64,000 nt of DNA from Bilabrum cf. latius (Eukaryota): positions 558,001 to 622,000 of the forward strand of contig OZ237762.1 in the NCBI GenBank assembly GCA_965178125.1, given 5' to 3'. Every line of letters begins with the position of its first letter. The first letter of the stretch is position 1. Both the position numbers and the translations under genes were made by a program. Positions 10,001-46,220 of the stretch are shown here, piece after piece. A model generated the notes under the pieces. That model was not told the DNA's origin and did not search any database. It was given only the letters and a program-made list of their open reading frames with translations.

Positions 10001-10709
10001 TCCGCTCACCCTCATGCTGAATTGCTGCCGCAAGAAGCCCATCAAATGGTCCCACAGCATGGTGATCTGGCACAGTGGCCTTCGTGGCGCGATCGCGTAT
10101 GCCACCTGCCTGCTCTTCCCCTCCCAGCACCGCGAGGAGATCGTCGTGGCGACCTCATGGACGATCCTGTTCACCATCTTCGTGCTGGGTGGGAGCACCA
10201 AGCCGCTTTTGGACTGCCTCGGGGTGGACCGCGAGGACAACAAAAAGATGCAGCAGCAAGCGTCCAACGCTGTCTCCGGAAAGCTCACGGCAGGCAGCAG
10301 CGGCGGCGGTTCTAACGAGTCCGGCTCTGACGACGTCCGGACGCGGCAGGGCAGGCAGGCCATGGCAGCCGGGATGCGGAAGCAGTCCTGGTTCATGGAT
10401 GTGATCGCACGCGTGGACGCGTGGTTGCGCGAAGCGATGCTTCCCGGGAAGGTGCCTGGGGCGCTCCGGCAGGGCGATGAGGCAGCGAGGGAGGCAGCGG
10501 AGGAGGCAGGTAGGTGCGGGCCCGCTGCGTGCTGCGTGAGCAGCGGCGGCGGCGGCGGCGGTGGTCCTGGCGGTGCGGGTGGCTTTGCAGGCATGGAGGA
10601 CGATGTGGAGGAAGAGAGGGACGGTGCGGCTGGGTCGCGGGGCAGCAGGGCCAGAGGTGGAAGGCGGCAGGAGAACAGGACGGAGGTTGGCGATGTGGAG
10701 ATGACTTGA
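7083..10709 (+). CDS. Fusion of an ANF-receptor/Venus-flytrap (type-1 PBP) domain to a CPA1 Na+/H+ exchanger (NHE8/NHX-like); upstream exon(s) not resolved
   Basis: One frame from a likely acceptor (cacag|7083) through TAG 7269 and TAG 9576 to TGA 10707-10709. VFT motifs: GGIIGAGTTEAT...H*VPLISYSS, LLRHFGWKQVA, RVVVLYA, MIGRGWTWVGTDW. NHE motifs: LFLLAFLPIIIFQSGY, FASLISAVDPVATLAVF, LVYGEAVLNDAVAVVLF, EMSGIVASLFAGI, WHSGLRGAIAYA, TIFVLGGSTKPLL. Confidence 0.88.
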
Positions 10710-25446: not shown

Positions 25447-28400
25447 ATGGAACGAAGAAGACTGCGGTTTGGTCTAAAAGAACGCATATGGACTTCGGCA
25501 GCATTTGTAGGGCAGTTTGCGGACCCTTATGCAAGTGGTGAGACTACGCATGAGTGGCAGTCAAGGATCGTTAGCTTGCGGATTTCGCATTTTCGAGATG
25601 TTCAACCGATTCCTTAAGGTGACGCGCAGGCACTGGATGCGAAGGTGGTCACATGGCACCATCCCTGCGGACTCTTGCTCGCATTCTCAGAGGCTTAGTG
25701 TCCAATTCCTGCGGTGATCCACCAGTCACTGATGAAGTTTGCTAGGCCCTGCGTTCCATTGCAGATAAAATGGTAGTAGCCGCTCGCTATGGGGAATAGC
25801 TTCTAAAGGGCGCCAACGAACCGCAAGTGCTAATGCGCGTGGCGGCGCGTGCTGCGGACGAATGCGCATAGCTTGCGGTTGGTGCCAGCATGCTGCTGCC
25901 CGGGGGATGGAGATCCGCAAGTGGTGGTCACGCAATCATGTTTCTTATCGAGCGGCAGGCACACGATTCGTATCTATTTGCTGTCATTAACACTGGGTCG
26001 GGCGCTGAGCATCATCCGAGGACTAGACTGAAGCATCCTCTGGAATCGGAGCAAGCGAGAACAGCAATTGCCCTCAAGAACATACCGCTATCGCGCATCT
26101 CGGACCGTGGAATTTGGTTCATGATGCATGGTATGTCATTTTCTTCGTCAACTCCATCGACCAAGAACGACCTGTACGAGGTGCTCCTCCCGCACCTGGC
26201 GGGCAAGACGACCCTTCGGGAAGCGATGATCGAGGCTGCGGGCGAGCACGGGCCCTTCGCGACCCTGCAGCGGGCGGGGTCCTGCTACTACAGGTGCGTG
26301 CTGCACGCGCTGCGCTACATGATGCAGCGGATGGCATTCGCGCCTGATCAGATCAAGCAGGTGACCTTCGCCGTCCGCCTGCAGTACCTTCGTGTGGCGC
26401 TGCGTCAGCTGCGTGCAGGTGTCGGTGACGAGGCCCCGGCAGTGGACGAAGAGAGGGACGAGGACGATGACGTGGAGGAGAAGGACTGGGAGGAGATCGA
26501 GGACGAGCAGGACGAGGAGCTCAAGGCGCTCGAGGCAGAAGTGGGCATCGAGGCGCCCAAGAGCTCCGACGTGCCGACGTCGGAGGGTGGCAAGGGGGCG
26601 GTTGGTTCCGCAAGCAGCGGCGCCGCGTCGGGCGCGGGCGCATCTGAGAGCAAGACGAGCGAGGAGGAGGCCCCTCTGGGCAGGATCGTGCTGCTGCCCT
26701 GGGAGGTCCGTATCCTGGACATCGCCTGCAGGCAGACTGCGCGGGCCGCTGCCAAGAGGAGAACCACGGGGCTGCTGGACGACGCAGGCACTCGTCACAC
26801 ATCGGAGCTGATCCGGGAGATTCGATTCCGGACAGCCTTGCTTGACCACACGGGGGCCATGGGGCTTACCCCTGACGAGGCCTCTGAGCTGGGGCCCGAG
26901 GTGGTGGCCATGTGCGAGAGGCAGGCCCTGGTGCTGGGCCCTCCCAAACTGGGGCTGGGCGCGTCTATCCCTGCGGAACCGGTGCGCGGCTTCCATGGCT
27001 GGGACGCAGTGGCTGACATGCGCTCCACGGACGTGTTCGCAGGCGGCGAGGCAGCTACGAGCGCTGATCCGTTCCTGGACCTGACCGAGCCCAGCAAGCC
27101 CAAGCGGGACAGCTGGGGCCGCGTGCTTGTGGGAGCAGAGGCGCGGGAGGACGTCGAGGAGCTGGGCCCCGAGGACTACGTGAAGGCTCAGCGCTAGCAG
27201 TTTTAGAAGACATTCAAAGCGCTGACAAGGGCTCAGGGACGCTGCGTGCAGATGATTCGGCAGGCGCATGGAGGCCTGGGTGACTCTGCGAAGATGCTGC
27301 TCCGCGCCTACATCGAAGAGGTGATCCTGGAGCGGGTGCCGATCCCTCAGGCCCCGGTGGTGCTGTCGGGCAGCGAAGATGACGACGAAGACGACAAGAA
27401 GAAGGAGGAGGGAGAGACCTCGGGTGCTGGTGACTCGGAACGCAAGACGGCAGAGGGCAAGCAGGACGACGAGGACACCGGTGATGCACCTCCCCTTGTC
27501 AAGTCCACCGATGACGGCGGGCCACTGCGGCCCGGAGTGGACCCGCAAGCTGTGCCCTAGGACGTGGTGGCTGCACATGGAGATGCAGCTGCATCCAGGG
27601 ACGCGGCCCGCAGCCTCAAGAACAGGCCTGACGTGTTCGACTGCGCCGAACTCTCGCAGCTGGAGCAGAGGACCCTCCTCTCCACAATTTTTGCCATACT
27701 GCAATCCTACCTGTGCGTCACTTGCAGTCTTGAGCACATTCGGCAGTACGGTGGACATGTGCATCTGACTGTCGCTGCCCTGCACGCGCTGTGGGAGCGG
27801 GTGGCACGGATTGAGGCCACTGACGGTCCGCTGGGCGTGACGACTGTGCTGAACCACGGATCCAGGCACAGCACCCCGGGGGGGCAGGTGGACAAGTCCG
27901 CCGGCGATGCCGATGGAGGTGCTGCAGCAGGTGCATCCTCTGGCGCAGGCGCAGACGATGCTGCTCCGAGGGGAGGCGTTGATCACAAGACCTGGGGCCG
28001 TCTTTACGGGTTGGTGCCCATTGAGCCAGCGATCCACATCCGGTTGGATGCGTGCGGTACTCGTTCCTTCCGCTATCACATGCAGTACGGGCTGATGAGC
28101 ACCCCTGCAGCGGTGGCAGCGCGCCCGCTGGTGCTGGAGTACTTTAGGGGCATGGAAGAGCAGTCGCACGGGTTTGCCTTCCACTACCCTCTGAAGCGCT
28201 TCAACAAGATCACGAGGGAGTACTCTCTCGAACAAGTACATCTCTGTTGGAACGCCAGCTTGTCTCTACTTGACCTTACTCCAGAGGCTGAAATCACCGA
28301 TGGCGATATCTACGTAGATAGGAAGCGAGAACGCCCTCGCGGGTAGCCGAAGCCTGTTGTAGACGAGCTTCCAACGCTTGAATAGCTATCCGAGAAGCAA

Positions 28401-31400
28401 AAGATCCGGATCTTCATGGCAACGAAGTGGGCCTACCGTGACTGTCCTGAGCTAGACCAACTAAGGTGCCTTGCCATCCTATCGCACATTGGGCTTCAGT
28501 ACTCCCCAAATGCTTCCAGCAGTGCTGGGAGAATTCCAGGGTAGGTAGTAGCAAGAGCAATACCCAGATATCCGGACCCGGATCCTAAGTCCCCGTTGCA
28601 TCTCCGGATTCACATGTACTCTGGTTCTATCCCGATTTCGGGATCAACAGACTTGCGCGACAAGCTGACTGAGCCTGGCTTTATCCTGTACCGCGCTGAT
28701 CCCACCCATGGCAGCCTCGACGATTTCAAGCTGACAGGCAGGGGCGAAGGAGCAGAAGAGATGGTGCTGCGTGCGGTAAACCTGCCCGACTACGATGGAT
28801 CTGTCTCACCTCAGGACGCCGAAGGGCTCCTGCTGTCCCTGTGCGCGAAGTACATGCGGATCCCTATGCTGCTGCGGTTCCTGGCGGGAGGCAGGCTGGG
28901 CGCACTGTCCCATCCTGAGGTGCAGCGACTGGTGGAGCGGGTGCTGTTTGAGCCATACCACTACTCTGATGCCGCGAGAGAGCGCAAGAATCGTGCTCTC
29001 AAGTTCGCCCATGCCGTGGATGCAGACGTGTCGGCCAGACAGAGGCGCGAGGAGAAGGCAAAGAGGAAGGCAGAGGCAGAGGCAGGGCCTCAGGAGACGC
29101 GCACCACAGTTGGCGATGTGGCAAATGATTCTGGTGAGCAGAAGGGAAGCGATTTTGTGCGCAAGGGTACAGCTAAGGAAGATGAACCGGAGCTTCCCTC
29201 GCTGGAGCTGATCGAGCGTGTTCCTCTACAGGGCCCGGTTGAGCGTGATGTGCTGGGCACGAGGCAGAGCTTCCTGGTGAACGAGCTGAGGGTGGCTCCT
29301 GGCGGGGTGATTGACCCGCTGCTGGCCATGGCGCACGAGGTGGTGCGGATGTGCACGGACCAACCCACCGGTGGATTCAGCTCCACGTTCCTGTTCCTGA
29401 CAGGCGCCATCAGCAAGGTGCTTTCGTTCCTCAAAGACGTGGGCCAGTGCAGTGCATTCACATCGACCCTCGCGCAGCAAGCTGGCAAGAGGGCCATGGA
29501 GCGTGCGGCTCTCTTTCTTCAGGGCACCGCGAGAGCAAAGCTGCTAGACATGATTCGCAAGCAAGTTCAGGTTTGCGCCGCAATTCGTACGAATGCAAGG
29601 AGCAAGGAGCATTCATCTAGGACCTTTTCGACAATGGGTGGTACTACAGCCAAGCAGTCTCTCTTGGCACTACTGAGGCTGCATGCGCACCAAGTGATTT
29701 TGATCGAGGCTGCATCTGGAGTATTGTCAGAGCTGAGCGTGTCCGATGCAACACAATTCCTGGGGTCAGCAGCACTTGTCCGCTCCTGGACGACCAAAAT
29801 AAGTTTTATTGTGGGACCAGGAACGAGCAGTATATCTTCAAATGTGTCTTTGACAGATGGCAGGGACGTGCAAGTACCCGCACTTGATGTATTTAACGCG
29901 ATGCTTCGCTTGAGGCAAAGCGCCATGCGTGCGATCTCGCTGGCCCCGTTGACAGAGCGCCTGGCCTGCTTGTCCTCTATCGCCGCCACTGCACTGCGGC
30001 AGGATTCCACGGCTATTGGCAAGTGGAGGCCCGCACAGAAGGATGATATGGTGTGCGAACGGACGCTAGAGTCGCAGCATCCCATCGTTGCCTCAAGTTC
30101 TGCCACGGAAATAGTTCGCTTTCCGGGGGCCAAGAGCATCACAGTATCATTTGATGAACGAATGCACATGGATGATACAAACGAAGTGCACTTGTACAAG
30201 AGTGAAGACCTTGATGAGACCTGGAGCCCCTCGGGAGGGTACGGTTCCCAGGAATCGAAACTACCTGGTGTAGGTGGTCAGCCTCCACTCGTTATCCCCG
30301 CCGATCATGTCGTGGTTGTGTATAGCACGAAAATTAAAAGGCAGCTTAAGAGCACGAATTATTCTACAAAGCTGCCTTGGGGAGTTCGGTGCACACTAAC
30401 TGCCGAAGTCTCCGAGCAGACTGCGAATGTCCTGGTTGAGTCGTTCGGCACCGGAGAAGACGGCAAGCCCAAGGCACAGCTGAGGTGGTGCAAGCGCGCC
30501 CTGGCCAAGTGCAACAACGACGAGGACGCTGCCCGCGAGTGGCTGGAGGCGAACTTGGACGACATGCGCGAGATGGACGAAGCCCGCAAGCGCAACCTTG
30601 AGCAGCAGGCAGAGGAAAGCGAGGCGGCAGGGTTCTACCGCGACAGCAAGTCAGGCATGGAGCTCAACGTGCAAACGGCAGAGGTGTACGTCCAGGGCAG
30701 GTCCATGTTCCCCATTCCCAGCTCGGTGTCAAGCCACACCCGCTTCTAGAGCATTTTCGGTAGCGACACGCCCCTGTGTGCATTGATCGACACGTCCCAG
30801 TACCGGACTAGGTACGAAATCCGGCACCAGGTGCACAGGATGACGATTTCCGCATGGACGGCGGGATACAAGATGAAGCCGCAAGCGCTGCCACCGCCCA
30901 AGGGAGCCATCCTGTCAGAGGCGGCCCTGAGGCCTCCAGTAGAGGTGCCCAGGCCTGTGCTGCAGAACTCGAACACAACCGCAGGGATCGTTAACGAGGA
31001 CTTCAGGAACGAGTCCATCCTTGAGCTCGTGCCCTCTACTCACATTGCACGGGAGGGCGAGGGCTGGACCCCTGGCGTGGATCCCCCGCTGCCCATTGGC
31101 GATGTGCCTGTGGACATGAGCAACCCTCTTGAGGACCAGGGGGAGGCATCGGCTGACGTGTTCTACTGGGGCCAGCCGGTGCTGCGGGAAGGCGTCGTGT
31201 ACTTCCGTGGGCAGCGATACAAGCAGGAGTACGTGAAGGAGGACGCCGGGTGGCTGGGCGAGATCTTTGGCGAGTCTAGCCACCTGCCCCTGCCCGGTGG
31301 TGTTGACCTGAAGGCTGCCAAGATCTGGGTCAGCGACAAGTTGGCTGCAGCGATGGAGGACGGTGGTGCACTGGGCAAGACTGCCGGTGACTCTGCGATC

Positions 31401-34400
31401 GACGATGCCATCATGGCCAGTCGTGGACCAGGCGACCCATCTGAGGACACGGCCGATGGGCAGGCAAGGCTTCGGCAGTACTAGTACATGGCCATGGTGG
31501 CGAGATAGGCCTTGGGCGCGGAAGGCAAAGAGGACGATCACGGATCAGAGGAAGCGCGGGACAGTTCTGTGCCCAGCCCTGTGCTCGGAACGATGCTAGT
31601 AGAATTCCTCAAAGCTCGATATGCGGGTGGAGGCTGCCATCCCGCAGTTTGGATCGAAGCCGAGGTTCTCAGCGACCGCAAGACGGTACTCATGTACCGT
31701 GTTGTCGAGCAAAACAGACAGACGGAACGACGCTTCCTGTCTACCTCTGACGAGCGATTTGCGCTCAGTACCTCTACTTACACTGCAAATTGCCTACGCA
31801 AGAAACGTTTGCCGCATCCTCTAGCGCAGTACATGGCAGAAGACACTTGTCTTAGCGGATACGGTGCTGTATTTGGATCTTTCACTAGAAAATAGGCGGC
31901 GGTTTACTACGAAGGTGATACCGTGTGGTCGGTGGACATGGAGCGACAGTGCCTCCTGGACCTACCTGCCGTGGACAGGCTTGTCAACCTGAGCTATGCC
32001 GACGGCAAGGGACTAGAGGACGATGAGCCAGCTGAGGAAGACGCGGCTGCACAGGCAGGCGACGATGATGAGGACGAGGACTTGGCTGGCATCGATCGGG
32101 TGGCGAACAACCCGCTCCTGTATCCCCGCACGCAAGAGAGGTATGTGTCTGAGGGCCAGCTGGCCAACCTGATCCCTGCCGCGCTGTCGGACAGCTACGA
32201 GTTCTGGGGTGCGGCAGGCGACAAGTACTTCGGATCAAGCATAGGAAGCGCCGCGGCTTGGCGCGCTGCATCGTTCCTATCCGTGGCAAGTGCCGGTGGG
32301 GATGGCCACAGGGGGGCTGATGCTGTGCCTGAAGCCGTCTTTACAGGCTATCCGCTGGTGGATGCGTTGCGAGACTCGCACCAGGATGCAGACACTATCA
32401 CCCTTGTGAGGGTATTCCGGCGTTTCTACAGCAAGGAGCATTCCGCGGGTCTGCCTATCACTCTGCAGGACATGGCTTCCGGCACCGAGATTGCGAAGCA
32501 GATCCTGGGGAGCTCTGGTGCGCGAGTGGATGTGGAGGCCGTGGTGACCCGCATGTCTCTGTCGAACTTCTTGGAGTTCAAACGACTGTCGTCTATCATT
32601 GCAGTGGTGGCTGACAAGAGAGCGAGCGCCGCAGATGGCGCAGCAGCTGGCGATGGTGCTGTTGTGGTGTCTCCAGAGGAGGCCACGGCGGAGGCAGAGG
32701 CACGCGAGCTGGCTGCCCGCATCCCGTGCCAGACGCTGATCAACCCGCTTCGGGTGCAGTCCGACACGATGAAGAAAGTGGTGGATCTGATCGTACGTAT
32801 CGAGCCTCTATCTGGATCGTTGATCTGGTCAAGTGGGGCTGGGCTGGCCCTGCTGGGCGACTCGCTGTCGTTGAGCCGCATCGAGTGCGTGAGGCTAGGC
32901 ACCGCTTTCGAGCCCAAGGTGGTCAGCGCCAATGCAGCAGTGGCCGAGAAACTATCCAAGGGCCAGACAGTGGACTGGGGCACGGAGCAGCCAAAGTATG
33001 TGAAGCAGGTGCGGCTGATGAGCACGGATGTCTCTGGGGCGTACATCAGCGATCGGCGCGACAGCAGCATGGCCAAGGTGCTGGCATCCCTGCCGCACGG
33101 AGTTGTACTAGAGAATGACATGCACCAGCTGTTTGTCATGCATCCAGGGTGCCATTATCAAATTTTGAGCATTGGGGAAGCGCCCTTATCTACAGATAGG
33201 CGAATGCGTTGGGATTGGTCTCCGCTTGTGAGAGCGGGTGCAGACAAGGGCTTCTACGTGTACCGCCTACACGAGGCCAACGCATTCGTGCACTTCAATA
33301 GTCCCGAGTCTGCTTTCTTCATGGCTGCCTCAGCTGTGGGTGCCCAGGTATTCGACTTGGCCTCGTACAGCATCCGTGGCTGCAGGATAGAGGGTGCCAT
33401 GTCAAACCCGATGAGTTATGCTGCGCGTATGGCGCTTAGTGTGCAGGCTGAGCATCCAGACGCAGTAGCAATTTTGATTCGTTTGCATCATCAGCGACTT
33501 CAAGCTTCCCAAATGACGCTGGGCGGAGATTTGGGTGTGTCCACCGGTGAAGTTGACAAGCTACTCCGACAGTACGACGTTAAACGATCGGCTATGCGCC
33601 CTCAGCTGGCTCCTAACCCAGAGGAGGAGCTAGCCCTGAAGCTCTTTGCTGGGAACGTTAATGACGGAACGGCGCACCTACTTCAAGCTGCTCTTTAGCA
33701 CAACAAACACACAGCAGCGGGCAGCCAGTCATCAGGGTGTTCAGCATCTGTCTCAAGAAATCAAAGAGTCGATGTCGAATTCCAGATTCGCAAAAGGCCA
33801 AGTTTTTCACCAGGCATGGCCCGGCAGCTGCTTCGGGTACATGTACCAGGAGCCTCTGTTGTATACTTCGCAGCTGCATCCGGTGGCTATCTGAAGAAAG
33901 GTAGGCAAGTGGTCAAGGTCTGGCACGATGAAGCTTGTACGATCCCAGTCCGCTCTCGGTGGGACCCGAATGAAGAATCGCCGAGGCTGCTGCAGTTGAC
34001 CGGAAATAGCAAATTCAATGATATTTCCACCCGCACATCACCCTGGCCAAATGGTTTCAGCGTTGATCGATGCGCTGTGATACTTGGTGATACGTTTTAT
34101 ATTGAGTATATCGACAACGGCCGTGACAGCTCTGATGAGGACTAGAGAATGTTCGAAGAAGCCAATTTGCGCAAAGACATCACGGGTCACACTGTGCGCA
34201 CGCAGATTCGAGACATGGATTCATAGAAAGAGCCGTACGTGTACGTCAATGGTTGTCAGATCAAGATTTAGGCATCTGTCCCGCTCAAGAGCCTGGGCGA
34301 GATCCGCGAGGCGATCAAGCACGACGCAATCGCGTGCCGTGCCGACTTGGAGACGAGAGACGAAGATTGCGGGGGGGGCAAGTCTGCCCTGGCTGCTGTT

Positions 34401-37400
34401 GGCGGGGCTAGTGATAGCATTGAGGCCTCTGAGTCTGGCGCTGACTCCGACTCGAGCTGGAAGGTGTCAAACTACACGGAGATCTTGCTGTCTGAGGGCA
34501 AGCCCTGGGACAGCCATTCTCGGCGTGTAATGAGCGGGGAGCTGAAGCTCGTGGATGACATGAGTCTGGTGCAGGGTGTGGATTACGACCACGAGTACCC
34601 AACCAGCAGCTCGATTGAGGCTACTGGGGGCATCCCAGTGGTCATGCCTGCGAGCAAAGTCACTACGCCTGGTGCGGTTGTAGCACATCAGGCTTTCCGC
34701 ACGATCGGCAGCGCTTTGGAGCTCGATTTCGAGGAGAGCTTGAGGAGGAAGAAGGTGTATGACAAGTATCTTGAGGACCAGAAGAGGGCTAAGAAAGATG
34801 CAGTTGCGAGTGCTGCAGAGTTAACAAAACATGACGCCTGTCTCCAGACAGGCTCTCCTGGCAGTGGCAAGACGAATGTTTCAAGCACCAAATCAGCAGA
34901 AGATGCTCGGAACGAGTAGAACACAGTCATTGGGCTGGGCCTATTTGATAAGCTTTCGTCGTCAATGGGCACTACCATAGCGTCTTGGATGTGCAACACA
35001 GCTCCTGATGACACAAGTGGATTCTCTGGCTCCGCAGATTCCGCTGGATATAGTGATGGTGAGCTAAGTGACGCACAGCTCCGGCAGGGTCTTGCGTCAA
35101 AGTGCCACTTGCTAGGTAACGGTCTTCAGTTTGGGGCTTTCAGATGGTTGTACAACTTAGCTACAGGTCGAAGTAGATGCGATTATCTTGAGGGCAAGCC
35201 CATACGAACGCCCAGATTCATTCGCGCCAGAGCTGCGCAAGTTAGGCAGCAAGTAGAGGCCCACAAGGAAGAATAGAAACAGGAATTGAGTGGTGTATCT
35301 GCTGAAAAAAGGCTTGAAATCTCAAAGAGGAGAAGGGCAGAGGAAGAGGCCCGGAGAACCACACCGCGGCAGGTAGCCGTTCCGCACGCAAGTTCAGACT
35401 CAATCCTCGCAGTTGCTATTCGCTCAACGGTCCGTCAGATCAATGAACAAGCACGCCATTATGAGGATCAAGATGGAACTATTATGGCTGCTCTTCTTAT
35501 TTTGGCAGCGAGCACGCTTGCACGGCGGGTCCGTGAAGCAGGTGGCCTCTCTAAAAGCTTCGTTGCTCAGGGACCCGACAACTTTGACCATCAATCTGCT
35601 TTGAAAGACACTTTTATTGGGCTGCATCGCCTCGGTGAGGGATCTAGCATGTCCGATGAGGATCTCATGGCCATGCTCATCGACTTAGATGTTGCATTTG
35701 AGCTCAAGGCTCGTGAAAGGGTAGCAGCAAGTGGCGGGGAAGTCCGCAAAGCTTCTGAACTGCTTCGACCTCAGTACGCGACCAAGCTGCTCGACCATGA
35801 TCGTAATTTTATCGGTCCGCTTCCTATTGTAATACGATCGGTGATGATTCGCTACATCGTGGGTGAGACTTGCCGCACCACAAGCACGAACCACTGGCCC
35901 CCCTTCATGGCAGACCTGCCCGGCCAGGTGGTCGATGCCACGCAGGTGCTGGGCAGCCTCAACACCAGGCCCATGATCGTCGCGAGAGGTTCCAACGAGA
36001 TCGGAGTGTCGCCAGTCGACGGATCTGGAATGACTGACGGCGAGACAGGCACAATCGTCACGCCGGAGCAGTACGCAGCCTACCGCTCGCAGCCAGTGGC
36101 AGACTACATCCGTAAGCAGTTTACCACTGCAGCTGGATGTGCGGTGGTGGATCTCGGTGAAGCTGACCCAATCGTGCTGGCCCCAGCGGAGGGCCATCCA
36201 GACCACCCGGACGGTGCCTTCAGCGAGGATGCTCCCTTCGCCTTGCCCGAGGACACACCTGAGGCGCAGTCGGGCGTGGGCAAGAAGCTGCTGGACCGCA
36301 TCAAGAACGACGTGAAGACCAGTGCAGTGGCAGCCAGGGAGCAGATGGAGAACCAGCTGAGGTGCATGACTCACGACAAGCTGCAGGTGCTCAGGGACTT
36401 CGTGCGAAGCTTCGGAAGTGATGGCGCTGCAAGGTCTGTGCTGACAGCGCCCTCCACCGAGGCAATGCAGCGGGTGTGTCTGGACGCTGCTGGCGTGCTG
36501 TGGAAGATCGACGGCATGTGCTCCTCGCTGGGCTTCACAGAAGGCCAGGCGTCTCAGCAGGGCCTGTCTAGCCTGCTGCAGCTGTACGGGGATAGGCAAG
36601 TTCAGGCCACTGGAGCCATGAGCCCCGGTGCCTCTGTCGATGGCACAAGCAACCTGAGCCAGTTGGCGGGACTCAAGTCGCGGCCCACCTTCGAGATCGT
36701 TGTGCAGTCGATGCTGACTCAGGGAGGGAGAGATGATCTGCTGTCCGCGATTGGCCTGCCTCTGGAAGACAGCACCAGGCGCACTGCAGAGACCGGCGAG
36801 CAGATCGTGATGTCGGCCATGCTGCGTGCATCTCGCAGTCTGCACGCTCGTCGCAGCAGTCAGATGGCCCGTGGGCTGTTCAAGAAGCTTGAGTCTATCC
36901 TGGTGGCATCTGTCCGCAGCACCTTCGCTCTGTCGGTGCTTCCTGCAGAGGGGGGGGGCTCGACGGAGGTGCTTGCCAGCATCGAGGGCAGCTTGATGGC
37001 CGCTGCAGGCATGGCATAGTGGGTGCATGGTGGCTGGATCTCCAGCGGCGGGCCAGTGGTGCTGCCCACGAGGAAGCAGGCACAGCTGGCGGTGTAGGCA
37101 TCCCGCATGAGCGTGCAGGAGGCAGTGGCTCGGCTATCGGCTTGGCAGCTGACTGCATGTGCGTGTGCCGGTGCACTCGGACCTGTGGGCAGCCCGATGG
37201 CAGCTCGGAACGCGAGGCTTGGTGCACTGCTGGCGAACATGTCCAGCGTGGTGACGCATGACTCCGTTGAGGGCAGGCTGTCAGCTGCGAAGACGGCAGT
37301 GGCAGTGGCTATGCACCTGGCCAAGGAGGCTGGAGGTGTGTCTGCTGCTCACGTGCACGCGCTATCCATCAGCGATGCCAGCGGGCTGGATGAGAGCTCT

Positions 37401-40400
37401 GTGGAGGGCGTGCTGTCACCCGCCATCGTGCTGCAGTTGAATGCTGCAGGGAGACCCATCCATGGCGCTGTGCCCGACGCGGTAGGCAAAGCAGTGCTGA
37501 TCGATGCCGCCGACGACGCTGTTGCTGGTGAAGGCTTGAACGATGCCACGCACGTGATCGCGGCTCGAGGCGCTGCCCATCGGGCGCTGGGTCTGCTGTC
37601 GTCTGAGATCACACTGCTTGGTATTGCCGCCAACAAGTTTGCAGCCGTGCTTGCAGCAGAGAGGACCTACCTGCCTGAGGCCGGCCAGCCGTTCAACCCG
37701 TGCTTCCTGGTGTTTGAGTTCCTGAGCGGCTTCGTGCTGTGGCCTCGGCAGGTGCAGATGGTGCACCAATTCCTGGAGCGCGTGAGAGAGCCTTCGGGCA
37801 ACCGAGTGATCCAGGCCCTGATGGGATCTGGCAAGTCGGCTGCTTTGAACCCGCTGCTGTCTGCGATCCTTGCAGACGGGTCGCAGGTGGTGACATCGGT
37901 GGTGCCTGCCGCACTGACTGACATGTCCCGCATGCACCTGACTCGGTCGCTGTCCACCATCTTGGGTCGGCGCGTGGTGACTCTGCAGTTTGAGCGATTC
38001 GCTCTGCCGCCCGTAAAAGTACTCGATGAAGATTTTGACCAGCTAATTATCAACGAGCTTGATGCAGTTGGCATTGATGACGATGATACAGCGCAGGTCT
38101 CTCAATCGAAGGTGGCAAGTACAGGACATCGCGACGCAGCGTGCGGAGCTGGCGAATCTGAGCAAAACGAGCACACAAGCAGTTCCGCCCAACAGCCGAA
38201 CAAACGTAAAGTTGACGAAAACGGACAAGGATCGGGCAAACGTGAGCGTCCAGCGTAGCAAAAGCCCAAACTTAGTACTCGACCGGAAGACGTGCTGTCT
38301 CCCGAAGATCTTGAATTTCTCAAAGGGATAAATCGATGTGGCCTTGGCTCTGTCAGTGTACGTGCACGTGAAATAGAGCGGAAGATGCGGGCTGCCTACA
38401 TCCGCAGGGATAGATACAAGTAGGAAAGGTATGGCGAGCAATGCGCCTTACCTAGCAGGTACAGAGCCATCCACTCAGCCCAACGAATGCAAGATTACTT
38501 GGACTACTTGCAAAATTGGGTGCGCACTGCGCATGATGTGCGCCGTGATTGCGGGGTGTTCACAACCACGCCCGAGTCCATCAAGTGCGTGATGCTGCAG
38601 TACCTCGACATGATGCATGAGGTGCGCAGTGCGCCCCCAGAGGTGTTCAAGTCGCCTGCCAGCTTCCAGTCCACCAGGTCCAGGAGCAAAGCAGCTGATG
38701 AGGCGGCCAGGCTGCGAGCCACTGCCAAGGCAGCTGACCTGCTGGCCGAGCTGCTGCACTGCCTGGGCGTGTAGCCCAGAGATGGAACGGCTGCATCTGG
38801 GGCGGGCGCTGGAGATGGAGCCGCTTCGCAGGCCGTGGTGAAGGCAGACAGCAACAAGGCAGGCACTGGTGTGGTGCTGCTGGATGAGGTCGATCTTCTA
38901 TTGAATCCGATGCTGTCCGAGCTGAACTTCCCCATCGGACCCAAACGGCCTCTGGAGCTGTCGCCGGATCGGTGGAGACTGCCGCTGCACATCATTGACG
39001 CGATCCTATCGTGCGTGACAATGGGCGTGCAGGTGGACAGGTCTGCAGGGGGTGCCGATGCCGAGGCAGCGGCCGGTGGCAGTCTGGACGTGCCTGCTGC
39101 TGCTGCCCGCGAGATGTCTTCTGTCGGGTCTGAAGGCAGTGGGCTCGAGGGTGGCAGCGACAAACAGGGCTACCAGAGCGTGGGCATGTCATTCCTGGAC
39201 CTGATCGGGAAGCTGGAGGCAGATCCGCTGGAGGCATCAGACGCCATGAGCACGCTTCGGTCCCTACAGCAGGCTCTGCGGAGGGGTGTCCGGCAGTACG
39301 CGCTGCAGGTGAACCCGCATCTGATCTTGCTGGACGAGGACTACTACCACGAGGACATCAAGCCTCACCTGGCTCACTGGCTGTTGTTCTGGCTGCGGCG
39401 TGACCTGAACTATGCCACGGAGGTGGGTTACGTGACGAAGCCACCTGAGCTGGAGGGCGAGGGCGAGGCTCAGGGTGACGGTGACGACACCGAGGACGGA
39501 CAGACGCCTGGAAGTGCGTCTGGTGGCGGCGTGGATGAGGGTGAGTTTACCCGCAAGGAGAAGGCCGTGGAGGCTGTGCTGCTGGGTGCCTCGGAGGAGT
39601 CGGAGGAGGCTAAGATGCTGAATCGTGAGCTGGGCCCAGCTGTGCTGCGGCTGATCAACTTGGGCCGGGCATGGTGCAATGTGTTTACGGCGCATGTGAT
39701 CAGCAAGATTGACCGTGTGAGCTACGGGCTGCTGCAGCCCGGAGACATCGCAGCCTTGGAGGCCGGTGCGAAGGGACAGCACAAGGAGCCTCCAAGCCGG
39801 CTGCTGCTTGCGGTGCCATTCGTGGGTAAGGACTCGCCATCGCAGAGCAGCGAGTTTGCGCATGCCGAGGTGCTGATCGGTCTGGCGGTGCTGGCGTACA
39901 GGTACGAGGGTCTTCGTAAGGAGGACTGCAGTGTGATGTTGAAGGAGATGAAGCGGTCGCTGATGTACGAGGCAGGCAACCCTGACAAGCGGCCATCTGC
40001 GGTGAAGTTCAAGTCATGGCTAGACGCTGCAGCAGCCAGCCAGTAGGAGGTAGATGCACCCGGGCTAGAAAGGATATCATCGCATGGCTCAGCCAGTGTT
40101 CTATCGCCGATTGCTGCAGAGCGGCAACCCTCAACAGCCTCATTAAGATCAATTAATTCGTCATCAGGGCTTCCGCCTAAGCTGCGGCGCCAGCAGAGCG
40201 CCAGCGACCTCAACGTGCAGAAGCGCAAGCGCCGCGCCAGGGCTCGTCGAGAGGCTGCCCTGTCCGTGTTGCCGCTGCCCCTGTTCCAGCCCACCGACCA
40301 GGAGCAGATGGCGGCTGCATTCGCGGCCCTGCGAGACGTGCCTGCGGTGGTGGACCACTTCGTACTGAACCATGTGTTCCCCAAGGTGATGAACCACCAG

Positions 40401-43400
40401 AAGCAGAAGCTCATGGCATCCGGCATTGATATGGGCAGTGACATGCTGTTCGAGAAGCGGCTGGGTTTCTCAGGCACCACGTCGGACCTGCTGCCCACCG
40501 GCATGACTTGCGATTTTGAGCCTGGGAGCGAGGCCAAGATCGTGCGCACTCTGACAAACCCGTCTGTGATCTCCACGATGGATCTGCGAGGCGACTGGGA
40601 CTCTCAGTTTATCCTGAGGACCATCGCCACGGCCAAGCCCCGGTTCCACGCGCTGATCGACGTGGGCGCTCTGGTGACGGGCATGACGAACTAGGAAGTG
40701 GCTGCGTACCTGCTGGAGCATGGGCTGGAGGGTATGCAGGGCGTGGTGTACTTCGATGACGTGGGCCGACACATGGTGCTGATGCGCGGGTCGAATGAAG
40801 GTATTCAGCTGGACCAGTGCGGCATCGAGCCCAGCGAGCGTTTCACGTTCTTCAACCAGACGAATGCCACGGGCACGGACTGTCCGCAGGTGATGGACGC
40901 CCGCGCGGCGGTGACGCTGGGCAAGGACATGACACTGCGCGAGCTTGCGCAGGGGTCGTGGCGCATGCGTGGTCTGGGTGTGGGCCAGACACTGACTGTG
41001 CTGGTGGTCCCTGAAGTGTCTCGGCTGGTGCAGCAGGCGGTACGTACAGACAAGTCGGACAAGGGAAGCAGTAGTGCAGCCGCGGCCGCCATGCACATGC
41101 TTGGGTCTGCAGGAGCAAGTGCGAGTCGCACGAAGCCTGAGCACATTGTGACTTGGCTGCTGGCTGCATCGATCCGATCTGAGCAGCTGCAGCACATGTA
41201 GCTGTGCGCTCAGCGTATGTCGTTCGTTTGGCGACGGCAGGCACTGCGCAATCTGGTGTCCTCGAGGCATCCGGCTGGCGGGTATGGGTATTCATGCGGT
41301 GACCTTCACATGGAAACTTTGGTTCTACAACCGAGGCAAAATTCGCTACGAACGCGATTCCGGTACGGAATAATTGACTCCACGCTGGACAACCACGAGC
41401 TGCATGAGTCGAGGGCGAGAGAGAAGCGGGAGGCGCATGAGAAGGAGATGGAGAAAGAGGCTGCCCTGCGCAAGCGAGGGCTGAAGAAGGAGGAGTCCGC
41501 TGAGAGCGATGCCAAGAAGAAGGAGGAGGAGGAGAGGGAGAAGAAAGCCAAGAAGATGGGCTTCGATGAGGAAGTGCCCGAAGTGACGCCGGAAGCGCTC
41601 AAGGCTGCCTAGGACAAGGAGGCCTCGTCCATTGCCTACACCGTCCGCCAGTCGATGAAGGCGTTCATGGATCCTCTGGACAGCTCCATCGGGGCTCAGA
41701 TCGAGGCGCCTGAGACGTTCGTGCAGCGGCTGACCAAGGAGCTAGAGGCGTGGTCGAGCTTGATCCAGACGGACAAGCAGAAGGCAGAGGTGCAGGCCGT
41801 GCTGGCGGAGGCAGGCAAGGCCGAGCGTGACGCTGAGAGTACAGCGCCGAGCAAGGCCGGCGGCAAACGACTTGACTTCGACAAGCAGTGCGTGGCTCAG
41901 GTGGAGCAGGAGTCGGAGCTGATGCTTGAGAAGGAGCAGGAGAGGCAGAGGGAGGTGCAGATGCAGAAGGAGAAGCAATCTCAGTTTGCCGACAGGTCCA
42001 CGGCCGCACGAGCGTGGGCCATGCATCAGCTGCGGCAGCCGTCCACTCTGCTGCAAGAACGTGATTTCTACCCATTGGACCAGTTCCGCTTCTCGCGATC
42101 GGCAGGCGCTCTGACCGTGGAGGGCGGGCATCGGCTGTGGCTGTCTGACAACCACACGGAGCTGTCGGCCCCGACCACTCTGCCGCGGCGACTGAAGAAC
42201 ATGGAGGTGGTGCTTCGGCTGATCCCGCCACCGGGTCAGGAGCTGGATGCGGCGAAGGTGGCTGCGTTGATCGGTACGGAGGCGGATGGTTCGGCTGCTG
42301 GGAAGAGCGGGCCCGAGTTGCGTGACCTGGTGATGGTGGTGTCACTGGCGGAAGCAGAGACTCTGCGGCGGGCTCTGCATGTGGGCCAGGATGACATCGC
42401 GGCTCTGACGAGCGATGTGCTGCAGGGCAAGGTGGATCCTGTGTCTCGGGCATATGTGGGACTGTACACGATGGATGGATTCCCATTGGACGCGGTGTTT
42501 GCGCCATCGACGCAGAGCGATGAACGCGCGGTGGTGAAGGGCGACAGTGCGCAGGACGTGCATTCGCTGTTGGGCCTGGCTCAGGTGTGTCGCTTCGTGG
42601 ACAACCGGGTGTCATTCACGCTTGCCGAGATGCGAGCCCTGCATCATCTGCTGAATAGATCTACGGCATCCGAACGTCGGACATTTTTTGAAGCCTGCAG
42701 AATGGGTCGTCGTCGCGACATTCCGTCGTGGGAGGAGACGGTGCTTGCCCCGCTGCTGTCACTCCGAGCCGAGAAGGCCTTCTTGCGGACTGAGGGTGTG
42801 GTGACCCGTATCCGCGAAGCAGTCAAGGCTCGCTTCGGCTCCATTGAGGAGGCCTTCGCTGCCTTCAACACGGATCGGTCCATGGCACTCGAGCCCAAGC
42901 ATCTGCAGGCAGGCCTTGGGTCGCTGGGCATGGAGCAGCTGTCATTGCGCGACCTGAGCGCAGTTGTGCGTCGCGCGGACTCGAACGGGGACGGGCAGCT
43001 GTCCATGGAGGAGCTGGGCAACCTGTTTGACATGCAGCCATCGGAGGTGGATGGCGGGGAGGGCGGGCAGGAGGACCCTGTGGCGCGACTGCGGCGGGGA
43101 GCCGACGAGTAGATCGGGGCGCGTCTGAAGTTCCGGCTGGCGATGGACATGCAGGAAGATGTGACTGCTCGAGCGCTTCTGGCGGGTCTTGCATCGAGCA
43201 TGAGTCCGCTGGAAGCCCAGCTTGCGGAGCAGGCAGTGGAGCTAATGGCGTCTGGCGAGATGTCTGCGGATCGACTGGACGAAGCGGAAGCAAAGGCAGC
43301 CGAGGATGCTGCTGCAGAAGGAGAGAAGCAGCAGTTCATGCCTCTGTCGCTGCGCCGGCAGGAGAGCTACTCGCCGGAAGAGTCGCCGATGATGTGTTTG

Positions 43401-46220
43401 CGCAAGATCCGTCAGCTTGGTAGCCTAATGATATCGAGTGGAGGCAGCTACAAGACAACTGAGTACTTGCAAGTTGCCGGTCATGATGAATCGCTTGTGA
43501 CAGTTGTGCAGCGTGGTCTTGCGATGAAGCCTGATGCCGGAACCTTCTTTGCGGAAGCGACCGTCTTGTGCACAGAGCAGGCGGCAGCAGCTGTCCGTGC
43601 TGCTTCCAAGGTCAAAGCAGCCAAAAAGACGTGGGGCCCGGATGCGGTGGGCGGAGCGTCAGTGCCGGATGGGCCGCTGGGTCGCGTGGGTGTGAGCGGG
43701 ATCAACTTCCGCGGGTCAGCGCGGCGGTGCATTGGCGTGGGCGATGCAGCGTGCACGTGGTGCATCCGGACGGACGGGGCGATCCTGTCTGAGGGTGATG
43801 AGGTAGCTCGTGCGAGCCCGCTGCAGATCGGCGACACGGTGGGCATGGCTGTGGACACGGTCAGGAAGAGCGTGCATTTCTATGTGAACGGGTAGGAGGC
43901 ATGTGATGCGCTTGTGGAGGGAGTGTCTGAGGCCCTGTAGAGCCACGGCGCGCTGACGATCGCAAAGTCTGTATCATCAATGTCGGCTTTGATGTGGAAC
44001 ATAGGAGGAACTTCCTTTTCGAATCCGCCGTCAATCGACTTTGCGAGCTGGAGGCAAGCTCGAGAGGCTATTCGGAGGCGATTGATGGCAAAGGCGGCAG
44101 GCTACAATCTGGGGTCTCTGATTCTGCCACCGACGTCAAACTATCAAACAGAGATCATCAATGGAGAAGTCGTCTACAACAAAAGCGAGGCTCGTAGCAC
44201 AGCGTCCGGTGTTGCTATGGCCGGCGTGCAGCTGTTCCGTGGTCGTTGGTTCTTTGAGGTGGAAGCTGTTGAACTGCCTGGAGCCAGCAAGGAGCTGACA
44301 AAGAAGATCAACAAGGCCCGCAAGGAGTCGCAATCGTATTTCGATCCTAGCCAACGAGGCAGCGCCCACCTATGTGATATGGCGATTGGCTGGACAGAGC
44401 AGTCCAAAGTTCATGGAGTTTCGGCTGTGACTCGACCCTTCTCAAGCCATGCGATCGAATGGACTAATGGTGTTTTTAGAAGCATCAGTGGTCATGGCCG
44501 CATCTTGCCAAACACAGTCTCATCCCGCAGTTCGTCGTACGGCAAGGACTGGGGCAAGCCAGGCGACGTCGTTGGCACCGTCATCGACTTGGACCAGGGC
44601 ACAGTCGCATTCGCCGTGAACGGGGACTGGTCCGAAGGTATCGCGTACCGATGTGTCACGACCTCCATAGGAATGAAGCCTGCAGTCGTCGTGTGGCAGG
44701 GGCGCGCTCTTCGTGTGAACACTGGCACCAAGCCCTTCAAGTACGGCCCCCCTGCCCTGCAGGTCCCCGACATCATGCACCCTGGCACGTGGGACAAGGA
44801 GAACAAGGAGCAGATGGCGCTGGCGGTGGCTGCGGGTCGGGGCTCTCCCATCCGCAGCGTGTACTCGTCGATCGTGCGCTTGCGTCCGTCTGTGACTCAG
44901 GCGCTGCGAGTGAGTGCGGAGGAGGCGAAGGCGGTGGTGTGCCAGGGGCTGGAGGAAGGCGAGGCAGCAGCAGGTGGAGCTGAGAACTCCCCAAAGCTGT
45001 CGATTGACGGCGGTGCATCGGCGCCAAACAAGCTCATCCGTCTTCGTCCTTTAACAGTGCGTTTGTCCAATTACATTTCCACGGACAACGTCGTATCTAC
45101 CTTTGGTATATCAATACAGGCATCGGCAGAACGAGACGTTGCCGTATCAAGTGGTAAGTGGTTTTACGAAGTCAGCATTGAATTGGATGGCAAGTTCGTG
45201 CTCGGCTGGGCCAAGAAAGGATTTTATGCTACCAACTCTTCGTCAGCTCGACTTGGCTGCTGTGCAGCCAGCTGGGGTGTGGTCGGGCACAAAGGCAAGT
45301 ACTGGCACGAAGATATTCCAGAGGAATGCAGGCCAATCGAGTACGAAGAGGACGACGAGGACAAGAAGGAGTCATCGGGCAAGGACGGCTCCGACGCAGA
45401 CGGCGACGAAGCTGCTGCTGCTACTGGTGGTGCTGCATCTGGCGCCGGTGCTGATGCTGGTGCAATCTTTGACGTCACATCTGCCACTGGAGCAACGGGC
45501 GGTGAGGGAGGTGGCAAGGAAAAGAAGCAGGTCAAGCGGTGGAAGACCTGGACGGAGGGTGACGTGGTGACGGTGATGGTGGACGTGGACAAGCGCGAGA
45601 TGCGATTCGTGCTCAATGGCGACTTCGCAGACGTGACTGGCCGCATGGCAGTGGTCCGTTGTGCGCCTGAGGTGGAGGATGAGGCGGCTGATGCGGCTGC
45701 ATCTAGCGCAGCCGGTCCGGGAGAGCAGGGTGTAGGGGCCTCCAGTCTGGGCGAGGGCGAGAGCAAGGACTCTGATGAGGAGACGTACGAGAATGCATGG
45801 GATGTCCGCCAGGCGGCGCTGCGCATGTCGGGCTTTCAGGGACTTTTCCCCGCAGTGTCAGTTCTTTCTTCCAAAGCTTAGGCAAAGTTTAAGTTCGGCG
45901 GCCCGAAGGATCCTGTGTCGTTCCCTCCTCCAGCTGAGAGCGGATACCGTCCGATCGCTGAGTCGGCGGGACTCGTCAGCGACGACTCGTCAGCAGACGC
46001 GGAAGGCCCTTTGAGCAAGACTTCTGCTGCGGAGTTCGAGGCTGCGGCTGACAAGATCAGGCGGTACGTGCCTCTCAAGGCAGGCCCGGGCGAATAGAAG
46101 CCAAAGGTGAAGCAGGCCAAACCTGCCGCTGCGATGGATGTCAATCAGAGTGCTGGAGCTATGCCGCCCGGGCCCAGTGGCTTGCATGGCGCCATCAAGA
46201 CTGGCATCGACCTAGACTAA
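25447..46220 (+). CDS. Giant DUF3638/DUF3645 helicase-like NTPase protein, copy A (~6,890 aa): putative Cys-protease, UBA-like, NTPase, EF-hands, 3 SPRY-like domains
   Basis: 21 listed ORFs from 25890 to 46097 all start in the same frame. About 30 TAGs lie in this frame, and I found no TAA or TGA between 25623 and the TAA at 46218. Probable first exon 25447-25537 and intron 25538-25629. Motifs: FLVFEFLSGFVLWPRQ, QALMGSGKS, LLDEVD, LLAVPFVGKDSPSQSSEFAH, GFSGT, ALIDVGA, AQGSWRMR; WCKRALAKCNNDEDAAREWL (UBA-like); DSNGDGQLSMEEL (EF-hand); GRWFFEV/GKWFYEV...GDVVG (SPRY). Confidence 0.88.

Follow-up and report, generated by a model that had tools for sequence, protein, structure and literature searches.

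Giant proteins bearing the DUF3638 and DUF3645 domains are spread across eukaryotes, and the architecture described here is already present in one of them, AMSG_03687 of Thecamonas trahens. No functional study of these giants was found in the searchable literature, where both domains are named only in passing, and no mention of DUF6606, PF12340, PF12359 or IPR022099 was found there; this agrees with the original prediction, made by a model from the DNA letters, which had called the family functionally uncharacterised. In this work, we describe gene A (25447-46220, + strand), located in a 64,000-nucleotide (nt) stretch of eukaryotic nuclear DNA of Bilabrum cf. latius (assembly GCA_965178125.1, contig OZ237762.1, positions 558,001 to 622,000), which is referred to as the window at its full length. 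The locus is probably one nuclear gene, read with TAG as glutamine and with TAA and TGA as stops, which encodes a DUF3638/DUF3645 giant composed of a protease-like domain, a motor, an EF-hand region and SPRY domains, and which is accompanied by a probably gene-converted paralogue, gene B (46554-63998, - strand).

Other described systems resemble single parts of this locus. The Legionella effector AnkH contains a clan-CE-type cysteine-protease-like domain with the triad His243-Asp258-Cys324 and the motifs rGHa, D/NRg and GNCSW; its histidine sits where a strand begins, the acidic residue where the following strand ends and the cysteine ahead of a helix, and the triad is needed in vivo (PMC6712400). 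With respect to the code, Iotanema spirale is described as having a nuclear code in which UAG specifies glutamine, while UAA and UGA are stops (PMC5304391).

Amino acid (aa) numbers in this paper refer to P0001, the product counted from the ATG at 25653. Translation with TAG as glutamine, proposed as a check in the original prediction, gives a single open reading frame (ORF) of 6,855 codons with 33 in-frame TAG (25653..46220, +). Under table 11, the same region is cut 33 times and the longest in-frame piece is 717 aa, and the protein is indeed hidden under the standard code, as had been claimed. The frame contains neither TAA nor TGA; the other two plus-strand frames of the same stretch contain 18 and 26 TAA and 176 and 210 TGA, respectively (194-236 combined per frame), and the log10 probability of zero TAA/TGA in 6,855 codons, calculated from base composition, is -62.7. 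Moreover, the codon-position GC pattern is constant in 18 of 18 segments of 400 codons (GC2 about 0.47; GC1 and GC3 0.55-0.77), and this uniformity makes the entire frame look coding. Reading with table 6 extends the frame by ten codons only, so the terminal TAA is the sole in-frame TAA.

The ATG at 25447 lies in a different frame from the long ORF and opens a 91-nt exon encoding MERRRLRFGLKERIWTSAAFVGQFADPYAS. A GT..AG interval at 25538-25629 (92 nt) fuses this exon in frame to ..GTGCEGGHMAPSLR.., restoring the reading ..YASGTGCEGGH, and the fused N-terminus matches the motif W..GAF.G.F.D.F...T.LEGG, which is present in many rows of alignment A1 (33 short hits together with the N-terminal domain, or N-domain, of the window). 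From homology alone, we infer that gene A is divided into two or more exons (25447-25537 and 25630-46220), with a product of about 6,893 aa; the length of about 6,900 aa from 25447 given in the original prediction is reached once the putative intron is removed. The gene model consists of the following parts:

25447..25537 (+): exon 1, with ATG at 25447, 30 codons plus 1 nt and the conserved N-terminal motif of the family (match to A1; splice predicted)
25538..25629 (+): putative intron of 92 nt, GT..AG, restoring frame and motif
25630..46220 (+): exon 2, with 33 TAG and a TAA stop at 46218-46220; P0001 starts from ATG 25653 (ORF with TAG as glutamine)

TAG also occurs in frame in other genes: 26 such codons lie inside paralogue B and 4 inside a kinase gene nearby, while two metagenomic relatives, L001 (620-6379) and L002 (2-3601), which come from independent metagenome contigs and are 63-66% identical, contain 16 and 10, respectively. 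At a local identity of at least 70%, alignment of gene A to L001 and L002, which overlap on part of gene A so that some sites may be counted twice, yielded 21 codon pairs that contain TAG. Two pairs have TAG on both sides; in the remaining 19, its partner is CAG (8), CAA (4), GCC (2), GAG (2), CAT (2) or CGG (1), which means glutamine in 12 of 19. Between genes A and B, five TAG-versus-other pairs lie in a context of at least 90% identity, with CAG in three and GAA in one. Gene A ends with TAA and gene B with TGA. Gene A has CAA and CAG in a ratio of 50:219 in addition to its 33 TAG; by arithmetic from codon counts, about seven in-frame TAA would be expected were TAA also a glutamine codon, and none occurs in A or B. 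The most likely code, judged from these comparisons, is TAG for glutamine with TAA and TGA as stops. The 64-kb window holds no tRNA genes, so no suppressor tRNA is seen there.

No description of UAG as glutamine in a stramenopile was found in the searchable literature. The locus documents a TAG-only reassignment next to a gene closest to that of a stramenopile, and it may represent an undescribed lineage with such a code. Genes of this kind are invisible to standard annotation, and databases seem to hold only fragments of them. Examples are P0035 (117 aa) and P0036 (209 aa), which are 95% and 60% identical, respectively, to parts of the N-domain and look like pieces that gene callers have cut out of this gene or a sister gene.

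The gene A protein is related to 32 giant proteins (3,888-7,343 aa) that match its motor at E 1e-53 to 1e-172. Their hosts include Thecamonas trahens, Hondaea, Achlya, Saprolegnia, Aphanomyces, Leishmania, Leptomonas, Trypanosoma, Aureococcus and Durusdinium, and some are metagenome proteins; the named ones are called 'ubiquitinyl hydrolase 1' in UniRef, which is an automatic name, and in Pfam the family is flagged solely by DUF3638 and DUF3645. The survey across protists that had been suggested as a check revealed the same order of blocks in these giants. In BLASTP, the shared blocks are aa 30-260, 1019-1110, 1190-1750 (in some) and 2360-2620 in the first half, followed by aa 3983-4115, 4295-4794, 4870-5210 and 5331-5800 in the second. 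A high-scoring segment pair in the N-domain was found in 31 of the 32, including P0012 and P0032, which are complete ORFs on single assembled transcripts. The best overall match, P0003, is 38% identical. A Pfam scan of seven relatives detected UBA, RanBP-type zinc fingers, an EF-hand pair after the motor and, in Thecamonas, SPRY; Leishmania P0021 carries an N-terminal ubiquitin domain. Since it is collinear with full-length relatives from the N-domain to the motor, the gene A protein joins a known, uncharacterised pan-eukaryotic family.

The motor of this protein and its motifs are located as follows:

37662..41195 (+): superfamily 2 (SF2)-type motor of two RecA-like domains with large inserts, aa 4004-5181 (Pfam, invariant columns of alignment A3, AlphaFold2 (AF2), VIA)
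37824-37838 (+): Walker A, GSGKS
38883-38894 (+): DEVD
39789-39884 (+): DUF3645
40464-40478 (+): GFSGT
40869-40880 (+): TGTD
40950-40973 (+): QGSWRMRG

Pfam identified DUF3638 (PF12340) at aa 4016-4115 (72.5 bits against a cutoff of 31) and, downstream of it, DUF3645 (PF12359) at aa 4713-4744 (44.2 bits against 25), at the places where the original prediction had put them. Starting from two conserved peptides, a metagenome scan returned at least 739 matching stretches, at least 606 of them confirmed motor relatives; 80 stretches were kept, and 34 of the 37 motor loci examined have a match range free of stops under table 11. Alignment A3, which joins aa 3990-5189 to 32 of these 34 metagenome loci (33 rows) and is the basis of the motor structure prediction, has the invariant or near-invariant columns Q..MG.GK(T/S), DE.D, FSGT, D.GA, TG.D and QG..RMRG.G. 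All of the motifs predicted earlier (DEVD, GFSGT, GTD and QGSWRMR) lie in such columns; they are found at aa 4411-4414 (DEVD), 4938-4942 (GFSGT), 5073-5076 (TGTD) and 5100-5107 (QGSWRMRG). GSGKS and DEVD are the Walker A and B motifs, and we read FSGT, TGTD and QGSWRMRG as motifs III, V and VI.

In the AF2 model of the motor, the inserts, which are missing from the relative on L004, have a low predicted local distance difference test (pLDDT) score and the strand-helix core scores 75-94. RecA1 strands are found at model residues 62-65, 90-94, 119-122, 313-316, 417-422 (DEVD) and 946-951 (GFSGT), the last two being separated by about 520 mostly helical residues that contain DUF3645, and RecA2 is placed at about 984-1129. 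According to this model, the motor extends from DUF3638 to DUF3645 and over the following 450 aa: DUF3638 forms RecA1, DUF3645 lies within an insertion of about 520 aa between Walker B and motif III, and RecA2 comes next. VIA, an aligner independent of Foldseek, matched the motor to DinG (Z 14.7, 363 aligned residues), SecA motor domains (Z 14.4, 334 aligned, root-mean-square deviation (rmsd) 3.7), CasDinG (14.1), SecA2 (14.0) and CHD4 (13.9), in alignments spanning model residues 15 to about 1190. Among the 50 VIA matches listed, all those titled by molecule are helicase-type or SecA-type ATPases, and a few are chains without a name that belong to ribosome or spliceosome assemblies. An SF2/SecA-like NTPase, as had been proposed, is supported in this way at the level of fold and motifs, with Z 14-15 to DinG, SecA and Snf2-type proteins.

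Pfam yielded no match of the motor to curated helicase families, the sole other P-loop family at E <= 0.01 being AAA_22 (E 0.0085, 16.8 bits against a cutoff of 27), and the A3 profile matched no PDB chain by sequence. The 1,200-aa motor query gave no match at E <= 1e-10 among proteins of near length, a search that was probably swamped by low-complexity words. As it matches no curated helicase, we classify this part as a predicted motor that works and folds like SF2 motors, outside any named helicase family.

The N-domain and its putative catalytic codons occupy the following positions:

25653..26438 (+): clan-CE-like cysteine-protease-like domain, aa 1-262 (AF2, VIA, Foldseek, His/Cys co-occurrence)
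25929-25931 (+): His93, putative catalytic codon
25989-25991 (+): Asn113, putative catalytic codon
26268-26270 (+): Gln206, putative catalytic codon
26283-26285 (+): Cys211, putative catalytic codon

A search of aa 1-270 against 1.84 billion representatives (E <= 0.001) detected 668 relatives of the N-domain. Alignment A1 displays the conserved motifs PGGW..GGHA, NTG.G..YHP and QRAG(T/S)C, and the AF2 model of the N-terminal 270 aa that was built from it has a pLDDT of 90.5 and a predicted template modelling score of 0.89. Foldseek matched this model to Legionella LegA15, AnkH and AnkD at E 1.7e-4 to 1.1e-3, and VIA to 7ew8 'AnkD' (Z 17.3, 215 aligned, rmsd 3.6) and 6mca 'AnkH' (Z 17.2, 202 aligned, rmsd 3.2). 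These Z scores far exceed those of the next VIA matches, which are RavZ (6.0), XopD (5.7) and NopD (5.5), followed by OtDUB, NEDP1, adenain, ChlaDUB, Ulp1 and SENPs (3.5-5.0). The catalytic N-terminus that had been suspected from the sequence is borne out as a protease-like fold, considering the model quality, the AnkD and AnkH matches, and those to clan CE at Z 4-6.

The candidate active-site residues follow the clan-CE order His, Asp/Asn/Glu, (Gln), Cys as His93-Asn113-Gln206-Cys211, with Asn113 invariant in A1. In the AF2 secondary structure they also take up the clan-CE layout, in which the histidine is on a strand, the amide past the next strand and the cysteine at the N-terminal end of a helix: His93 occupies the third position in strand 91-103, Asn113 lies just past strand 106-112, Gln206 is five residues ahead of Cys211, and Cys211 opens helix 211-226. 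When the relatives were realigned to the A1 profile, 131 domains had both columns aligned; His93 and Cys211 were both present in 80 and both missing in 38, while 11 had the histidine alone and 2 the cysteine alone. Such joint loss is to be expected of a catalytic pair. Among the giants, the series His-Asn-His-Gln-Cys is found in ten, P0033 has His-Asn-Asn-Gln-Cys, and P0003, whose N-terminal end is cut, has Gln-Cys. Glutamine and cysteine are kept in all seven SPRY-bearing relatives, and the gene A protein is of this intact, SPRY-bearing type. The division into two subfamilies, with the His/Cys pair kept or lost, is new here, as is the model-based assignment of the N-domain to an AnkH-like protease type; an active isopeptidase of the ubiquitin-like protein (Ubl) type is what we infer from this fold.

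In the subfamily that lacks His93 and Cys211, as seen in P0014, P0021 and A1 rows, the N-domain is directly followed by a domain of the thioredoxin-like type, Thioredoxin_8, in which some rows have CPPC. The 'viral tegument-like' deubiquitinases, which were considered as a candidate family for the N-domain, were rejected; the paper on them places them in Helitrons and herpesviruses and draws no link to this architecture.

Outside the N-domain and the motor, the gene A protein contains the following modules:

28707..28982 (+): short conserved block, aa 1019-1110, common to most giant relatives (BLASTP map; zero Pfam families)
30066..30398 (+): beta-rich module 1 of the original prediction, aa 1472-1582 (sequence; overlaps the A/B-divergent block 1490-1578; no Pfam match)
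30489..30545 (+): UBA-like stretch, aa 1613-1631, sub-threshold (Pfam UBA)
33819..34271 (+): beta-rich module 2 of the original prediction, aa 2723-2873 (sequence; inside the A/B-divergent block 2585-2873)
42843..43028 (+): EF-hand pair, aa 5731-5792, with loop 2, DSNGDGQLSMEE, canonical and loop 1 degenerate (Pfam, calmodulin chains)
43680..43901 (+): SPRY 1, aa 6010-6083, weak alone (21.6 bits against a cutoff of 26.3)
44376..44729 (+): SPRY 2, aa 6242-6359 (37.7 bits; RyR SPRY chains match)
45156..45872 (+): SPRY 3, aa 6502 to about 6740, interrupted by an acidic insertion (46.2 bits in two stretches; RyR1 SPRY 4p9j at E 1.6e-5)

About 3,700 aa between the N-domain and the motor form a conserved scaffold. 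The first 3,000 aa of the protein match no Pfam family at E <= 0.01, and within the scaffold, Pfam matches at E <= 1 amount to the weak UBA and hits at chance level. The predicted UBA is present in part: a weak stretch lies at its place, below the Pfam cutoff in this protein, and above-cutoff UBA or UBA_7 occurs in the same chain order in three of seven relatives scanned, namely P0008 (UBA 24.9 bits), P0014 (UBA 23.6, UBA_7 30.7 bits) and P0005 (UBA_7 30.1 bits). Likewise, loop 2 of the predicted EF-hand pair (DSNGDGQLSMEE) fits D-x-N-x-D-G-x-x-x-x-x-E, and a 631-aa piece scores 26.1 bits with EF-hand_6, whose cutoff is 25 (a longer piece scores 22.8); loop 1 is degenerate, and the EF-hand_7 pair model stays below its cutoff (20.4 bits against 30). 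Calmodulin chains match the EF-hand region at E about 5e-4. SPRY (PF00622) scores 86.1 bits over three stretches, above the gathering score, in line with the three SPRY-like domains that had been described (the first alone is below the cutoff). Profile searches bearing on the predicted NTPase, SPRY and EF-hand domains recovered DUF3638/DUF3645, SPRY and EF-hand. Relatedness of the two beta-rich modules, which had also been claimed, gained no support from BLASTP (aa 1460-1610 against aa 2715-2880, E 1.8).

The original prediction makes no mention of paralogue B next door, which is located as follows:

46554..63998 (-): paralogue B, 5,814 codons seen, 26 TAG, TGA stop, 5' end beyond the window (ORF with TAG as glutamine)

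Genes A and B lie tail to tail, 333 nt apart, and their comparison gave a mosaic. In blocks of at least 85% local identity, 61 of 3,754 aligned residues differ; in blocks below 60%, 818 of 1,308 differ. The divergent blocks, in amino acids of gene A, are:

1297-1411
1490-1578 (beta module 1)
2044-2087
2585-2873 (beta module 2)
3048-3398
4127-4292 (RecA1 insert)
4795-4831
6119-6178
6226-6294 (SPRY 2 start)
6442-6547 (SPRY 3 start)

At four-fold sites, 89 of 2,079 (4.3%) differ in the conserved blocks, whereas 179 of 259 (69%) differ in the divergent ones, which indicates that the divergent blocks are old and that the rest was recently homogenised. This pattern suggests that the inverted paralogues have undergone partial gene conversion, and speaks against a recent duplication after which change was fast; the mosaic of A/B blocks, some homogenised recently and others of ancient divergence, is new here. 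Contigs from four public runs that cover the locus look like DNA and are broken up at paralogue-specific blocks; joints at 33403-34279 and 38008-38547 fit B-type versions of two divergent blocks. Opposite the giant genes, antisense ORFs of up to 817 aa (with TAG as glutamine) are found at 26148-28601 (-), 41665-42615 (-), 50210-51160 (+) and elsewhere; they have no family match where tested, are mirrored in both paralogues and look like by-products of a G+C-rich coding strand.

Several points weigh against the account given above. The putative intron, the single messenger RNA and the translation of TAG are deduced from the DNA sequence, as none of the public runs listed for this DNA is registered as RNA; this, together with the 33 cuts under table 11, favours a reading in which TAG is a true stop and the region contains numerous short genes, is a degenerated pseudogene or results from faulty assembly. 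We consider that reading extremely improbable. Only TAG interrupts the frame, and the absence of TAA and TGA over 6,855 codons has the very low probability given above; paralogue B and the independent contigs L001 and L002 show the same pattern, CAG or CAA stands opposite TAG in relatives, the order and content are as in full-length relatives from standard-code organisms, and the window DNA occurs in runs of seven studies, which include variants that resemble one another at 95-99%. Another possibility is that TAG is a sense codon for a different residue (e.g., glutamate) or is read ambiguously. In alignments with distant homologues, the residues at the TAG sites of gene A fail to single out glutamine: the 156 pooled cells contain 33 glutamates, 26 gaps and 19 glutamines. 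However, the surplus of glutamate stems from a single column, aa 5014, where it is found in 23 of 32 distant homologues, and close relatives give CAG or CAA in 12 of 19 pairs and GAG in 2, as the paralogues give CAG in three and GAA in one at high identity. Reassignment to a residue other than glutamine, or an ambiguous reading, appears highly unlikely. With regard to the domains, Foldseek found no match of the motor model at E <= 0.001 (best E 0.28, with UvrB, CasDinG, Cas3, DEAD-box proteins and SecA as the top rows) and the mean pLDDT of this model is 64.4; the UBA of the gene A protein is sub-threshold (E 0.0023, 18.2 bits against a Pfam cutoff of 22.4).

Further counterevidence concerns the N-domain. 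It has no sequence-level match in Pfam, NCBIfam or PDB, nor to bacterial AnkH-type proteins, and the predicted pairing of His93 and Cys211 was placed by strand and helix positions in the model. The cysteine is absent in 19 of the 31 giants, among them those of oomycetes, trypanosomatids, Hondaea, Durusdinium and Aureococcus. Almost all domains retain Asn113 and His121, including those of members lacking His93 and Cys211, which suggests a conserved role of the domain beyond the putative dyad. Its nearest solved folds are AnkD, AnkH and LegA15; AnkH is described as showing no protease activity in vitro (PMC6712400), and LegA15 was reported to be a GTPase whose hydrolysis is abolished by C361S and little affected by H268A (PMC9757750). 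The main rival builds on these points: the N-domain would be no protease and would hydrolyse nucleotides, as reported for LegA15, or act as a regulatory or pseudo-enzyme, making the protein a double-NTPase scaffold without deconjugation. We judge this rival unlikely, as His93 and Cys211 come and go as a pair (80 with both and 38 with neither, against 13 mixed), which fits a dyad better than a lone cysteine, the position of Gln206 five residues before Cys211 and the strand and helix positions fit clan CE, and the relatives carry modules of the ubiquitin system. CE-clan enzymes include acetyltransferases, and AvrA, of the YopJ type, is among the weaker fold matches (Z 3.9); the domain might also be a protease that processes its own giant precursor, for which many long disordered linkers could hold cleavage sites. 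That a catalytic CE-like domain has either of these roles seems to us quite unlikely, since nothing specific to acetyltransferases or self-processing appears in the data and the best CE-clan matches below AnkD and AnkH are Ubl proteases and deubiquitinases.

If the domains act as their folds suggest, the gene A protein would be an NTP-driven, Ca2+-responsive, ubiquitin-linked machine. The SPRY domains and paralogue-specific modules would choose targets, the UBA would bind ubiquitin or a ubiquitin-like tag, and the ATP motor would remodel or translocate the target or scaffold. The N-terminal cysteine enzyme may then strip the ubiquitin-like modifier or cut the target, and Ca2+ could modulate the machine through the EF-hand. 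The old duplicates A and B would be kept alike along most of their length by gene conversion, with certain blocks staying distinct. A broader proposal, which we put forward as tentative and rather doubtful, is that the family is an unrecognised class of machines with an SF2 motor and a clan-CE Ubl protease in one chain, that its protease head is the eukaryotic source of the AnkH/AnkD/LegA15 domain of Legionella, and that the A/B pair is a constant-plus-variable system for sensing or restricting invaders. Conversion would in this case keep the enzymatic core identical, and the beta modules and first halves of SPRY 2 and SPRY 3 might be held apart to serve as alternative cassettes for target recognition, like those of SPRY-based immune sensors. 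Were this proposal true, the machine would have a role in sensing or restricting invaders, and the AnkH-type domain that Legionella-like bacteria inject into amoebae would be of eukaryotic origin.

The value of the locus lies in the anatomy that it provides for an uncharacterised family and in the structural link to a Legionella effector domain. For giants so widely spread across eukaryotes, this anatomy is now testable at the residues of the cysteine enzyme, the motor motifs and the His/Cys split. The chemistry of AnkH and LegA15, to which the fold of the N-domain is linked, is a matter of dispute, and the eukaryotic family provides a separate system in which it could be settled.

Beyond the two giant genes, the window holds an ankyrin protein gene and the following neighbours:

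1476-6434 (-): kinase and CBS ORF of 1,652 aa with 4 TAG; a TKL-type, Tyr/Ser-Thr-type kinase domain is followed by CBS
7353-10709 (+): ORF with an ANF_receptor ligand-binding region (E 8.7e-12) and a Na+/H+ exchanger (E 3.9e-51)
22738-24831 (+): DUF3419 and methyltransferase gene, betaine-lipid-synthase-like, without TAG and with a TAA stop

The ANF_receptor match begins at profile position 97, which makes a further exon upstream likely. Among named proteins, the closest to the betaine-lipid-synthase-like gene is from Cafeteria roenbergensis (61% identity over 89% of the query), and the database fragment P0181 is 100% identical to 62% of this gene.

Compared with known systems, the window resembles Iotanema spirale in having TAG as a sense codon, probably for glutamine, with TAA and TGA ending genes; it differs in its organism, which is probably unrelated, given that a neighbouring gene has its closest named relative in Cafeteria roenbergensis. 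The N-domain shares its fold with AnkD (7ew8), AnkH (6mca) and LegA15 (7kj6/7xql) over about 200-215 residues at Z 17. With AnkH it has in common the order His, Asn/Asp, Cys, with GGHA, NTG and AGTC here against rGHa, D/NRg and GNCSW there, and with LegA15 the glutamine five residues before the cysteine (PMC9757750). In contrast, it has no detectable sequence similarity to these proteins, which are ankyrin effectors of about 450 aa and not part of a giant motor protein, and whose activity is disputed, with no protease activity seen in AnkH and GTPase activity reported for LegA15. Similarly, the N-domain agrees with clan CE (Ulp1/SENP, NEDP1, XopD, ChlaDUB and adenain) in the His-Asp/Asn/Glu-(Gln)-Cys order and in strand and helix placement, with fold matches at Z 3.5-5.7, a range that the aligner calls common, but it lacks a match to Pfam Peptidase_C48 or the like and has an extra helical insert between Asn113 and Cys211. 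The motor shares two RecA-like domains, a P-loop, DExD and columns like motifs III, V and VI with SF2 motors and SecA (DinG 6fwr, SecA 3bxz, CHD4 6ryr and DEAD-box proteins); unlike them, it has no Pfam helicase or PDB sequence match, holds about 520 aa between Walker B and motif III, and carries a disordered insert of about 180 aa after the first three strands. The closest likeness is to Thecamonas AMSG_03687 (P0013, 4,954 aa), in which the N-domain with His-Asn-His-Gln-Cys, block 1019-1110, DUF3638, DUF3645, RecA2, the EF-hand pair and SPRY are all collinear with those of the gene A protein, and giants of this type are 41-51% identical to it over conserved motor segments. The window protein differs from AMSG_03687 in being about 1,900 aa longer, in having three SPRY stretches instead of two, in its large low-complexity inserts and in requiring TAG as a sense codon.

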